Virus record (IMG/VR): IMGVR_UViG_3300042402_003952
DNA length: 64,000 nt
Source of the DNA: a virus
Lineage: Duplodnaviria > Caudoviricetes
Strand: one strand, 5' to 3'
Shown here: one piece after another, positions 3,217 to 29,180 of the stretch
Position numbering within the stretch: the stretch's first letter is position 1
Layout of the letters: each line of letters begins with the position of its first letter
The notes under the pieces: generated by a model
The model's database searches: none
What the model saw: the letters and a program-made list of their open reading frames with translations, nothing else
What the model was told of the DNA's origin: nothing
Position numbers and translations under genes: made by a program

Positions 3217-3288
3217 GCCCTTATAGCTCAGTGGTAGAGCAACTCACTAGTAATGAGTAGGTCGTTGGTTCAAATCCGACTGAGGGCT
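3217..3288 (+). tRNA. tRNA-Thr(AGU), A34 anticodon
   Basis: ACTCA-CTAGTAA-TGAGT; acceptor GCCCTTA/TGAGGGC; U73. Confidence 0.9.
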
Positions 3289-3323
3289 CTCAACTATCTG
3301 AAATTTCCAGATAGTTCATACAA

Positions 3324-3395
3324 TCCAGAATCGACTAACTGGCAGGTCAGCACCCTTTGAAGGTGTACGTCTAGGTTCGAATCCTAGTTCTGGAA
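3324..3395 (+). tRNA. tRNA-Gln(UUG)
   Basis: GCACC-CTTTGAA-GGTGT; acceptor TCCAGAA/TTCTGGA. Confidence 0.95.
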
Positions 3396-3413
3396 TTGCC
3401 CCTAATGGGGCAA

Positions 3414-3590
3414 CAATCTGTCCAACACTGGGGTTCGACTCCCCACATCTCCACTCTTGGGGATGAACTGGCATTCGACTGGGCAGAGGGTTCTGAGAAT
3501 AAATCTCAACAACATCGTATCTTTCCGCAGAACTGCTGTTGCCGTTTGAGCAATAGCACTTTGAGCGAACTGGGGAGTAATCCCTTTTTC
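3414..3590 (+). ncRNA. ssrA: circularly permuted (two-piece) tmRNA
   Basis: T-arm TGGGG-TTCGACT-CCCCA and acceptor 3' strand CATCTCC-A (3429-3453) come before the 5' strand GGGGATG (3459-3465, G3.U70) and ..ATTCGAC; helix TCTGTCCA/TGGGCAGA; tag ORF 3505-3549 LNNIVSFRRTAVAV* resembles cyanobacterial ANNIVSF... tags. Confidence 0.9.
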
Positions 3591-3591
3591 T

Positions 3592-3666
3592 GTTGGGTTG
3601 GTGCAATTGGTAGCATCTCGGTCTCCAAAACCGAAGATCAGAGTTCAAGTCTCTGGCCCTTCGCCA
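3592..3666 (+). tRNA. tRNA-Trp(CCA), with two U-U mismatches in the acceptor stem
   Basis: TCGG-TCTCCAAAA-CCGA anticodon arm (loop CT-CCA-AA); G73 plus CCA; acceptor GTTGGGT/GCCCTTC. Confidence 0.8.
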
Positions 3667-8351: not shown

Positions 8352-8475
8352 AGTGGTGGAGCCTCAGAAAGGACCCTCTAGGGTTTATTGCTTCCTTTAA
8401 AGAGCAATTGGTGCGGATGGGGATCTCTCCTGCCTGGTTTCCAATTTCCAGTCAAAGAATTGGTGGCGAGACTGA
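8352..8475 (+). ncRNA. structured RNA upstream of the NAD-dependent epimerase (wcaG/manA-type cyanophage motif)
   Basis: Two tandem modules GGTTT-[stem]-TTCC-N3/4-AAAGA-[stem]-TGG with compensating stems ATTGC/GCAAT and CCAAT/ATTGG; TGGYG motifs; upstream of a WcaG-family gene. Confidence 0.6.
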
Positions 8476-8484
8476 GTTTACCTA

Positions 8485-26660: not shown

Positions 26661-26689
26661 CTCTCATAACTCTTAACATTGTTAAACAC

Positions 26690-26760
26690 CCATTAACCGA
26701 GACCTATGGGGTGTATAAATTACGTCTCTCATATCTTCTCTAGGGGTGAGAAGAAATATT
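26690..26760 (+). ncRNA. structured psbA 5' leader (PhotoRC-II-like)
   Basis: GAGAC...GTCTC pairing and TTCTC-TAGGGGT-GAGAA hairpin upstream of psbA; family assignment from recall of cyanophage psbA leaders. Confidence 0.5.
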
Positions 26761-26806
26761 GAACCCTGTTCGTCCCCACGAACTCTTACTTAACCCTTTT
26801 TCAAAT

Positions 26807-29180
26807 ATGACTGCTTCAATCGCTTCACGCCGTTCTGGCGAAAACCTCTGGGAACAATTCTGTTCCTGGGTAACTTCAACCGATAATAGACTGTATGTTG
26901 GTTGGTTCGGAGTCCTTATGATTCCTTGCCTTCTTGCTGCTACAACTTGTTTTATTATCGCTTTCATCGGTGCTCCCCCTGTAGACATAGACGGTATCCG
27001 TGAACCCGTTGCTGGTTCACTAATGTATGGAAACAACATCATCTCTGGTGCTGTTATTCCAAGTTCTAATGCCATTGGATTGCATTTTTACAGCATCTGG
27101 GATGCTGCTTCTCTTGATGAGTGGCTTTATAAATAATATTGGGTCACTTTAAATCGGGTGAACTGCTGGAAAGCTAAGTTCTTTATGAAACACAAACATC
27201 ACCTTACTCCAAAATATCTTGGTGGTTCTAACGAATCCCAAAATCTTGTAGAAGTTTCTACAACTCAACACGCTATGTTTCATTATTGTAACTGGCGTCT
27301 TTGGGGAAACGAAGAAGATAAGATTGCTTGGAAAGCACTTGCAGGATACTCTAAAAAAGAGGAAATAATTCATCAAGTTATTTCTCTTGCAGGTAAAAGA
27401 GGTGGTAAGGTTGCAAAAGAAAGCGGACAACTTCGGTCTGCTGCTCTTAAACAACCAAGAAGTGTAAGGCAAAAGATTGGTAAAAATCTTATCAACTATG
27501 CCTACAAAAATCCAAAGAATGCAACACAAGAAACTCTTACTAATAGAAAATACAGTAAAGTATTTCACATTTATGAAAAACTAACTGAAAGGACTATTGG
27601 TAATCATCTTGGGGATGTAGTTTTTAATCCAGAAGAAGATAAAACACTCAAAACTGTTTGTTCTATTATTCTGGAAAAATATGGGGTAAAAGTTTATCCT
27701 TCACATCTTAATAGTGTTGCTAATGGAAATAGACTTTTAACAAGTGGTATTTCTTGTAGTTGGATTTTAGAGAATATGCCAATCAGCATCCAAGCCACAG
27801 ACGATACTTCTGTGGAAGGTTCAGAGACTACTGGGTTCAACAAGCGTGTTGAGTAATACCAGATTAGCGCCCGACATCTTATAAAAAATAAGATGAAGAT
27901 ATAGTCCAGTCCATATGGAAACATATGGTTCCCCCGACTGCTATAATGGGGGTCCTTTCCAACTTGTTGTCTTCCACTTCCTCATCGGCATCTACTGCTA
28001 TATGGGTCGTGAATGGGAACTCTCTTACCGTCTAGGTATGCGCCCTTGGATTATGGTTGCTTATAGCGCACCTGTTGCTGCTGCGAGTGCTGTATTCCTG
28101 GTCTATCCTTTCGGTCAAGGTTCTTTCTCTGATGCGATGCCTCTTGGTATCTCTGGTACATTCAACTACATGCTTGTATTCCAGGCAGAGCACAACATCC
28201 TGATGCACCCCTTCCACATGCTTGGAGTTGCTGGTGTCTTCGGTGGTTCTCTTTTCTCTGCTATGCACGGATCTCTTGTCACCTCTAGTCTTGTACGTGA
28301 GACTACAGAAAATGAGTCACAGAACTACGGATACAAGTTCGGACAAGAAGAAGAAACCTACAACATTGTAGCTGCTCATGGTTATTTTGGTCGCCTTATC
28401 TTCCAATATGCTTCCTTCAATAACTCACGTTCACTTCACTTCTTCCTTGCTGCTTGGCCCGTTGTAGGCATCTGGTTCACTGCTCTTGGTGTTTCTACAA
28501 TGGCTTTTAACCTCAATCGTCGGGGTCCCGTCTTAGCAATTTGACGGTAAACATCGGGTGAACTGCTGGAAGCCCTCCATAAATGGGTAATCAGCATCCA
28601 AGTCCAAAGTACACTTTGGAAAGGTTCAGAGACTACCTGAGGAGTTCAGTCTCCTTAATAACAGGAATAAGTGCCCGACATCCTAAATGGATGAAGATAT
28701 AGTCCACTCCTTAAAGATGGTAAATTTAAGGGTTCAGTGCAACGGTTTTAATTTCAATCAGTCCATCATTGACTCACAAGGTCGTGTCCTTAATACTTGG
28801 GCAGATGTACTGAATCGTGCAGGTCTCGGAATGGAGGTCATGCATGAACGGAACGCTAGATTTGTTGGTGTTCTTGCTTAGGAATAAGCATTAGTAAAAT
28901 CGGGTTAAACGGGGAAACTCTCTATGAGACAATCCCGTACCAAGTCAGAAAGGGTTTAAGTTTTCTGAAAGGTCTAACGACTAGATGGTGAGTCCCAACA
29001 ATAATCCATCCACGAATGCCCGACATCCAGAACGGATGAAGAGATAGTCTGAACTTACTAGTGATAGTAAGAAGTAGAGGATAAAGAACCACTACGATAA
29101 CAAAATTGCACAACTTCCCACTTGACCTTGCCGCAGCAGAAGCAACACCAGTTGCTCTTACTGCTCCCGCAATCGGTTGA
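26807..29180 (+). CDS. psbA: photosystem II D1 protein in four exons (26807-27126, 27941-28513, 28740-28857, 29109-29180)
   Basis: Joined exons total 1083 nt = 360 aa plus stop; junctions restore EWL|YNGG, AFNL|NGFN and ERNA|HNFPLDLA. Confidence 0.97.
27127..27940 (+). mobile_element. group I intron 1 in psbA, encoding an HNH endonuclease
   Basis: 5' exon ends in U with P1 GTGGCT/GGTCAC; terminal G at 27940; core motifs AATCGGGTGAACTGCTGGAA, AATCAGCATCCAAG, GGTTCAGAGACTA, AGATATAGTCC. Confidence 0.92.
27185..27856 (+). CDS. intron-encoded HNH homing endonuclease
   Basis: [30 protein letters not shown]; the 3' end reads through intron core motifs. Confidence 0.85.
   Translation: MKHKHHLTPKYLGGSNESQNLVEVSTTQHAMFHYCNWRLWGNEEDKIAWKALAGYSKKEEIIHQVISLAGKRGGKVAKESGQLRSAALKQPRSVRQKIGKNLINYAYKNPKNATQETLTNRKYSKVFHIYEKLTERTIGNHLGDVVFNPEEDKTLKTVCSIILEKYGVKVYPSHLNSVANGNRLLTSGISCSWILENMPISIQATDDTSVEGSETTGFNKRVE
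28514..28739 (+). mobile_element. group I intron 2 in psbA (ORF-less, 226 nt)
   Basis: Core motifs ATCGGGTGAACTGCTGGAA, AATCAGCATCCAAG, GGTTCAGAGACTA, AGATATAGTCC; terminal G at 28739; removal restores CT|C AAC GGT. Confidence 0.92.
28858..29108 (+). mobile_element. group I intron 3 in psbA (ORF-less, 251 nt) near codon 334-336
   Basis: P1 GAACGCT/GGTGTTC; motifs AAATCGGGTTAAACGGGGAA, CAATCCCGTACCAAG, GGTCTAACGACTAG, AGATAGTCT; terminal G at 29108. Confidence 0.92.

Follow-up and report, generated by a model that had tools for sequence, protein, structure and literature searches.

The window, that is, the whole 64,000-nt stretch of the viral record IMGVR_UViG_3300042402_003952 that was analysed, contains at positions 3396-3591 an element that is probably a functional two-piece tmRNA gene of miniature size, belonging to a freshwater T4-like cyanophage and transcribed within a tRNA array. 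The element lies between the genes of tRNA-Gln and tRNA-Trp, and has a circularly permuted order: the 3′ acceptor half stands upstream of the 5′ half, with a short spacer between them. Phage two-piece tmRNAs themselves have already been published; what seems to be new is the pseudoknot-free build, the size of about 190 nt and a leucine codon fixed at the resume position. In the literature the miniature CUC form was not found described, and full-text searches for the tag strings gave no match. A first-pass annotation, made from the sequence without database searches, had placed a phage-encoded permuted tmRNA at 3414-3590. The core was correctly located, but the real element is larger, as it also comprises a 5′ hairpin (3396-3413) and ends at 3591.

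Judged from its gene content and its matches, the source of the window is an uncultivated freshwater T4-like cyanophage. This assignment is based on the tRNA set (22 tRNA genes within the first 7 kb, ARAGORN), the cyanophage RNA motifs wcaG and PhotoRC-II (Rfam), a psbA gene interrupted by group I introns, matches to Synechococcus and Prochlorococcus myovirus DNA that occur in patches only, and near-identical sequences in lake/freshwater metagenomes from at least 11 studies. The psbA gene (26674-29100) is apparently split by three group I introns (Rfam hits 27663-27928, 28504-28731 and 28848-29071). The PhotoRC-II RNA (26674-26767) is upstream of the split gene, and a 232-aa ORF (27158-27856), perhaps encoding a homing endonuclease, lies between the first two exon-like psbA frames and extends into the first intron hit. 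The wcaG RNA maps to 8379-8477 and is also found at the related loci L129, L135 and L126. The array includes a tRNA-Thr gene with the anticodon AGU (A34, 3217-3289). The same gene recurs in several related phages (L022 10362-10434, L026 7264-7338, L133 3330-3402), which shows that it is conserved rather than an error. ARAGORN also detected, in the arrays of related phages, a tRNA-Ile with the anticodon UAU, in many cases of unusual length (up to 95 nt): L022 10966-11039, L026 8921-9011, L133 3232-3326, L135 1456-1545 and L137 8840-8927.

All features described below are on the plus strand. The gene of tRNA-Gln(UUG) (3324-3395; ARAGORN, Rfam tRNA) abuts the element in the window as in most relatives. 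The acceptor piece begins with a 7-bp hairpin (3396-3413, loop UAAU), which was found in the minimum free energy (MFE) fold and aligns to the first hairpin of the Rfam model RF01851; among the relatives its stem carries compensatory changes, e.g. GCCCC/GGGGC, GCTCC/GGAGC and ACCTC/GAGGT. It is followed by the first strand of the P2 helix (UCUGUCCA, 3417-3424), whose partner UGGGCAGA (3480-3487) belongs to the coding piece. In DNA letters, the two strands are TCTGTCCA and TGGGCAGA. The T-arm (3429-3445) has a 5-bp stem and the 7-nt loop UUCGACU, as obtained from the Rfam alignment, RNAalifold and the MFE fold. Next come the 3′ acceptor strand CAUCUCC (3446-3452) with the discriminator A73 (3453), the 5-nt intervening spacer CUCUU (3454-3458), and the 5′ acceptor strand GGGGAUG (3459-3465), which leads into the D-loop analogue AACUGGCAUUCGAC (3466-3479). 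The acceptor strands are identified by sequence and by the relatives, and the 5′ strand and the D-loop analogue also by both Rfam models. The T-arm with its tRNA-like loop and the D-loop analogue (..GG..UUCGAC) align to both models. The two acceptor strands form a 7-bp stem with G3:U70, and G3:U70 together with A73 is the alanine identity. CCA is not encoded at the 3′ acceptor end. The acceptor strands with their CTCTT spacer, the G3:U70 pair, the helix joining the two pieces and the lack of CCA had all been noticed in the first-pass annotation, and proved to be as described there.

In the coding piece P2 is followed by a 17-nt linker (3488-3504), which takes the place of the distal P2/PK1 region of longer forms (MFE fold, RNAalifold, alignment with long forms). 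The bases U-5 and A-4 of the linker are at 3500 and 3501. The tag reading frame (3505-3549; CUC AAC AAC AUC GUA UCU UUC CGC AGA ACU GCU GUU GCC GUU UGA) consists of 14 codons encoding LNNIVSFRRTAVAV, and a stop codon. The sequence confirmed the earlier reading that TAAAT precedes a frame starting with CTC (3505-3507) and ending at a TGA (3547-3549) in a hairpin loop. This hairpin is the apical stem GCTGTTGC (3535-3542)/GCAATAGC (3550-3557) of an extended helix 5 (3526-3567, outer pairs CGC..GCG; MFE fold, conserved in relatives). A stop codon in or next to the helix 5 loop is the usual tmRNA arrangement (PMC3968760). The element is closed by a 3′ terminal hairpin (GGGGA/UCCCU, 3572-3585) with a U run, which together resemble an intrinsic terminator (3572-3590; MFE fold, terminator scoring, relatives) and align to the last hairpin of RF01851. 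The gene of tRNA-Trp(CCA) follows at 3592-3666 (ARAGORN, Rfam tRNA). Only 17 nt separate P2 from the resume codon, and the hairpin upstream of the tag and the helices after helix 5 of the Rfam model are deleted. Folding, the Rfam alignment and comparison with long forms revealed no PK1, nor an equivalent stable hairpin, in the element. A promoter-like site is located at 2151-2180, ahead of the tRNA array. The terminator-like hairpin is inside the array, where it may partly interrupt transcription; every relative has a hairpin in the same place.

The fold of the element is far beyond chance. The MFE structure of 3396-3591 alone reproduced all helices named above (-71.3 kcal/mol, z = -4.04), and 0/200 shuffled sequences folded as well. 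ARAGORN did not call a tmRNA in the window, and Rfam at gathering thresholds did not report one either. Sub-threshold Rfam matches were visible only under E-value thresholds. With these, RF01851 (cyano_tmRNA) aligned to the element from end to end with 43.9 bits (gathering threshold 70; E = 4e-11 for the stretch searched), and RF04321 (tmRNA_permuted) matched the tRNA-like domain only, with 40.4 bits (gathering threshold 47). The search with tmRNA detectors, suggested in the first-pass annotation, thus gave a covariance-model match, but neither a score above gathering nor an ARAGORN call. In the RF01851 alignment the NNIV codons of the tag fell on the NNIV of the model and CUC on its GCU. Deleted in the element were the distal P2, the hairpin that precedes the tag and the structures that follow helix 5.

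Some miniature relatives scored higher. L126 (60.9 bits), L146 (52.3 bits) and L040 (48.6 bits) passed the gathering threshold of RF04321, and L129 (70.8 bits) that of RF01851; the subgroup of the window, L135, L133, L125 and L132 stayed below gathering. The miniature family thus straddles the Rfam thresholds, and its homology to tmRNA is secure. The end-to-end alignment to RF01851, the kinship with the tmRNAs of phages S-CRM01 and S-SSM7, the series of progressively reduced genes described below and the relatives that pass the thresholds bear out the original identification of a phage-borne, circularly permuted tmRNA homologue. As ARAGORN expects a start with Ala or Gly, it overlooked the gene in the relatives or assigned it a wrong tag. 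Given these misses and mis-calls and the sub-threshold Rfam scores, surveys of phage tmRNAs undercount such genes. The sub-gathering scores, the lack of an ARAGORN call and the lack of PK1 or a stable hairpin are counted against a working tmRNA, as is the junction before the T-arm, which is ACAC in the window vs GGAC in tmRNAs generally and in half of the relatives.

Relatives were collected from IMG/VR by pattern scans, one anchored on the tRNA-like domain and others on the tag start. The miniature family has at least 27 distinct variants, found at 35 loci on contigs of uncultivated viruses. All 35 deviate from the window: the closest ones are 95-97% identical, and the others differ in every helix. 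L289, considered as a tmRNA, was a chance hit. When four miniature variants were compared with 50,697 isolate phage genomes by blastn, no full-length miniature form was found, and the matches were limited to the tRNA-like domain (S-CRM01, S-SSM7, S-SSM6a, S-CAM3 and AG-345-P14).

The structure of the miniature form is under purifying selection. P2 occurs in 11 different versions among the 27 variants, each with 8/8 pairs; for the acceptor stem and the T-stem there are 8 versions each, again paired throughout. When one strand was shifted by 1-3 nt against its partner, pairing fell from 100% to 31-63% in P2 and 40-58% in the acceptor stem. RNAalifold, run on 22 sequences without prior structure, recovered P2, the T-arm and part of the acceptor stem, and double changes occurred in 19 of the 32 pairs that it predicted. 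G3:U70 and A73 were invariant (27/27 variants; G3:U70 also in 22/22 aligned sequences). In all variants helix 5 is extended and has the stop codon within or beside its apical loop, and the element is closed by a terminal hairpin and a U run. The terminal hairpin stems are of unrelated sequence across the variants, and in L040, L126 and L146 an equivalent helix 5 is built from different sequences. Between conserved flanks, the spacer varies freely in sequence (TTAAT, TTCTT, TTCTC, TTATC and others) and has a length of 4-6 nt (64 nt in L146), as would be expected of a segment excised during maturation. In most relatives the element is tightly packed between tRNAs.

These data bear on whether the element could be a decaying, functionless leftover of a tmRNA gene that was captured from a host or a phage. 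Its large deletions relative to host-type genes, the sub-threshold scores and the non-canonical first codon would suit such an origin. Yet 35 loci representing 27 variants keep the frame, and keep every helix by compensatory changes; moreover, the same architecture is found in lineages that differ in their acceptor, T-arm and P2 sequences. This pattern of conservation, as read from the alignments, largely refutes decay, which we consider very improbable. The compensatory changes in every helix, the invariant G3:U70 and the synonymous changes in the tag indicate, at the level of sequence comparison, that the miniature tmRNA is a gene under selection and not a relic.

Some contigs carry a second copy of the module made up of acceptor piece, spacer and GGGGATG: L006 (5638-5760), L086 (a second match to the tRNA-like domain) and L118 (10646). 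In place of a tag, a further T-arm with an acceptor-like end comes after these modules, which may be tmRNA-derived tRNA-like chimeras. Glutamine riboswitch aptamer and abiF RNA motifs are also present on contigs with a miniature tmRNA (L129 1126-1184 and 2556-2592; L126 409-445).

The peptide frame is under purifying selection, too. The miniature variants encode ten distinct tag sequences with the motif L-N-N-I-V-[SRK]-F-[RET]-R-x-x-V-[AL]-[VA]. Outside the positions fixed by the search pattern, synonymous codons are used for Arg9 (AGA/AGG/CGC), Val12 (GTA/GTC/GTT), Phe7 (TTC/TTT) and Val5 (GTA/GTT). This synonymous variation speaks for translation of the frame, and argues against a relic as well as against a pure decoy. 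In the latter case the tRNA-like domain would titrate host SmpB or AlaRS and shut down host trans-translation, as proposed for the RNA of mycobacteriophage DS6A that consists of the tRNA-like domain (TLD) only, and the tag would not be used. A TLD-only phage molecule does exist and a similar one inhibits tmRNA (PMC4131195), and the RNA studied here is heavily reduced and lacks PK1. On the other hand, a pure decoy would have no need for a tag frame, a stop codon in the helix 5 loop and an amino-acid sequence that are conserved through synonymous changes in divergent lineages, and we find this function quite unlikely.

The resume position of the element is occupied by CTC, rather than by an Ala codon (GCN) or a Gly codon. 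The first-pass annotation had pointed out a Leu resume codon, and CTC indeed takes the position of GCN in related genes. Among the sequences collected through the tRNA-like domain, with no constraint on the tag, the first triplet was CTC in 9/9 distinct miniature forms and GCN in 22/22 longer forms, and when the first triplet was left free in the pattern, it was CTC in 34/34 real miniature loci, the single other hit being a chance match; these samples cover only lineages with the GAGAAYAANT context or the GGGGATG acceptor, and other first codons are possible elsewhere. The distance from G1 to the tag is 45-46 nt in miniature forms (46 nt in the window) and 61-92 nt in longer forms. In the alignment CTC shares a column with the GCN of the longer forms and has the same spacing to NNIV, U-5 and A-4. 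In L040 the sequence is UAACU-CUC, vs UAACU-GCU in the Rfam consensus. With the resume codon assigned in this way by alignment, the tag appears to start with leucine instead of alanine. The tag start containing CTC with its context was also searched for in 185,579 species genomes (one each). The 45 hits, none of which had a tRNA-like domain upstream (0/45), were dismissed as chance matches.

It is conceivable that the RNA works as a tmRNA, but translation resumes one codon later (AAC) or earlier. The tag would then lack the leucine start, and CUC would be kept as part of a frame-setting sequence or of a hairpin formed by UGAGA and UCUCA. CUC is fully invariant, with no synonymous CUN or UUR codon, though other codons of the tag vary at third positions; it can pair with a conserved upstream GAG, the frame is open upstream of it, and according to reviews Ala is the rule for resume codons, with Gly found sometimes. 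The alignment described above, including the L040 sequence, speaks against this shift, and so does the fact that AAC as resume codon would lose A-4. A natural non-Ala resume codon is also known: GUA (Val) in the tmRNA of Helicobacter pylori (PMC2862035). All considered, a resume point other than CUC is unlikely.

The putative hairpin would form between UGAGA (3494-3498) and UCUCA (3504-3508), thus including the resume codon, and would leave A-U-A-A-A with U-5 and A-4 in the loop. The pairing can be drawn in most lineages, but is absent in L129 and L133. Because the GAGA/UCUC pairs never vary, the hairpin is beyond the reach of a covariation test. Tagging by E. coli tmRNA needs PK1 or a stable hairpin, and in E. 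coli a small stable hairpin can replace PK1 (literature). That the pairing is the reason for the fixed CUC is, on this model, possible but not supported. If it did the job of PK1, the hairpin would explain the joint occurrence of PK1-region loss and fixed CUC: U-5, A-4, A-3 and A-2 would be shown in the loop, with the first codon in the stem.

Six loci (L008, L026, L122, L135, L136 and L137) have the gene order tRNA-Gln, miniature tmRNA, tRNA-Leu(GAG) (e.g. L026 8054-8395). tRNA-Leu(GAG) is the decoder of CUC. Its gene was found in 10/35 miniature loci vs 0/27 long-form (GCN) loci, the loci being partial and related to each other, and we regard the association as a lead only. In the window ARAGORN detected Leu(UAG) and Leu(UAA) tRNAs; Leu(GAG) is absent there. 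It can be proposed, tentatively and with considerable doubt, that a minimal, pseudoknot-free tmRNA positions its resume codon anew and, with the tRNA-Leu(GAG) adjacent to it in some of the phages, makes up a phage-owned trans-translation module that would write an (A)L...AV tag.

At the other end of the tag the prediction of a non-AA terminus held in so far as the tag of the window ends with AV, but this is not peculiar to the element: 12/21 complete long-form cyanophage tags end with V. Changes in the end of the E. coli tag, e.g. to AAV or ASV, have been used to alter degradation rates. By analogy with these engineered tags, a V end plausibly tunes proteolysis rather than abolishing it. The commonness of V-ending tags suggests that aquatic myoviruses tend to alter the degradation signal, and the valine end and the leucine start may both change the handling of tagged proteins.

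For the working of the tmRNA we infer the following course. Host tRNA-processing enzymes would release the element from the flanking tRNAs: a cut at the 3′ end of tRNA-Gln would free the 5′ end of the acceptor piece, and an RNase P cut at the 5′ end of tRNA-Trp would trim the coding piece. The spacer would be excised by an RNase P cut 5′ of G3459 and by trimming of the 3′ end to A3453, followed by addition of CCA. This would yield two RNAs, the acceptor piece with about 58 nt (plus CCA) and the coding piece with about 130 nt, held together by the 7-bp acceptor stem and the 8-bp P2. For RNase P and 3′ trimming a spacer of 5 nt is very short as a substrate, which is counted against this processing. 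Host AlaRS would recognise G3:U70 and A73 and charge the RNA with alanine. With host SmpB, the RNA would enter stalled ribosomes and donate its Ala, and translation would resume on CUC, probably the first tag codon. The tag (A)LNNIVSFRRTAVAV would be appended, and translation would end at the UGA in the helix 5 loop. A PF01668 (SmpB) search of five contigs carrying the miniature gene (32-52% complete) yielded no match. The benefit for the phage is likely to be an extra or host-independent capacity for ribosome rescue during infection.

A weak hint of transcription comes from metatranscriptomes. The copy of a close relative is covered by contigs from two metatranscriptome studies, in which DNA carry-over is possible. 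One of these contigs (305 nt) runs continuously from tRNA-Gln through the tmRNA of the relative; assembled contigs show no RNA ends.

Two questions about tmRNA are open: its minimum size, and by what means the ribosome, given no start signal, locates the first tag codon. The miniature family is a natural experiment on both. It has about 190 nt, an 8-bp P2, no pseudoknot and 17 nt from P2 to the tag, and selection clearly maintains it all the same in many lineages of phages. That loss of the PK1 region is strictly linked to the change from GCN to CUC offers a directly testable hypothesis of frame setting. The family is also a further indication that aquatic myoviruses bring along, besides large sets of tRNAs, a translation-rescue apparatus of their own.

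Knowledge of phage tmRNAs goes back to the mycobacteriophage Bxz1 group (PMC4131195). Buchholz et al. (2022) found 53 two-piece tmRNAs among 18,146 phage genomes, mostly aquatic, and listed S-CRM01 and S-SSM7 as carriers of permuted tmRNAs (Table S1). A tmRNA database of 2025 contains 79 phage sequences from RefSeq viruses. The closest known systems are those of S-CRM01 (HQ615693, about 88.3-88.5 kb) and S-SSM7 (GU071098, about 20.98-21.29 kb). These are full permuted tmRNA genes, scoring 74-109 bits, which is above gathering. Like the element in the window, they are borne by cyanomyoviruses and have the same permuted order with a spacer of 5-6 nt. The tags are related to that of the window (ANNVVKFRRTAV... 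in S-CRM01). The T-arm and acceptor of S-CRM01 are nearly identical to those of the window (97.5% over 40 nt), and it also has a hairpin directly after the tag and adjoining tRNA genes. In contrast to the window, the tags of both phages start with GCN, and both have kept the distal P2 and the pre-tag region (61-92 nt from G1 to the resume codon vs 46). Both pass Rfam gathering and are called by ARAGORN, unlike the form in the window. Such longer phage genes are in part annotated as hypothetical proteins. In S-SSM7 the tmRNA region is annotated as hypothetical protein SSSM7_025 (L001 580-798 = GU071098 21009-21227), and the match in S-CAM3 (KU686198 183030-183091) is also under a hypothetical protein; the gene of S-CRM01 is unannotated.

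The two-piece tmRNA of marine and freshwater picocyanobacteria (RF01851) shares with the element the permuted gene, the 5′ hairpin, P2, the tRNA-like domain, a tag of the NNIV... type, the stop codon in helix 5 and the terminal hairpin. The RF01851 consensus has 288 positions, vs about 196 nt for the element. The consensus tag ANNIVSFSR...PVAA starts with GCU and ends with AA, whereas that of the element starts with CUC and ends with AV. The hairpin before the tag and the extra structure after helix 5 are absent in the element. Unlike host-type RNAs, it no longer has the distal P2 helix, the PK1 region or any of the pseudoknot structure further downstream; according to the literature, two-piece tmRNAs work with few pseudoknots. 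Alignment A2 arranges these genes in a reduction series. The host-like stage is represented by L079, with a ...PVAA tag and full 3′ structure. At the intermediate stage (S-CRM01, L051) a hairpin comes right after helix 5 and the distal P2 is kept, and at the miniature stage the distal P2 is lost, too. The tag of L051 (ANNIVSFSRTAVAV, GCA start) differs from that of the window only in the first residue and in having Ser8 for Arg8.

More distant systems share single traits. The tmRNA of H. pylori has a natural non-Ala resume codon, but it is a bacterial one-piece RNA of full size with pseudoknots, and the residue is Val, not Leu. The two-piece tmRNAs of marine myophages (Melnitz and pelagimyophages; Buchholz et al. 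2022) are likewise permuted and encoded by aquatic T4-like phages, and were proposed to act early in infection. They differ in being of the alphaproteobacterial type with other tags, some with a glutamine riboswitch, and show no such miniaturisation. The TLD-only tmRNA of mycobacteriophage DS6A (PMC4131195) is also phage-borne and heavily reduced. It is without a tag frame, whereas the element in the window has kept a conserved 14-codon frame with synonymous variation.
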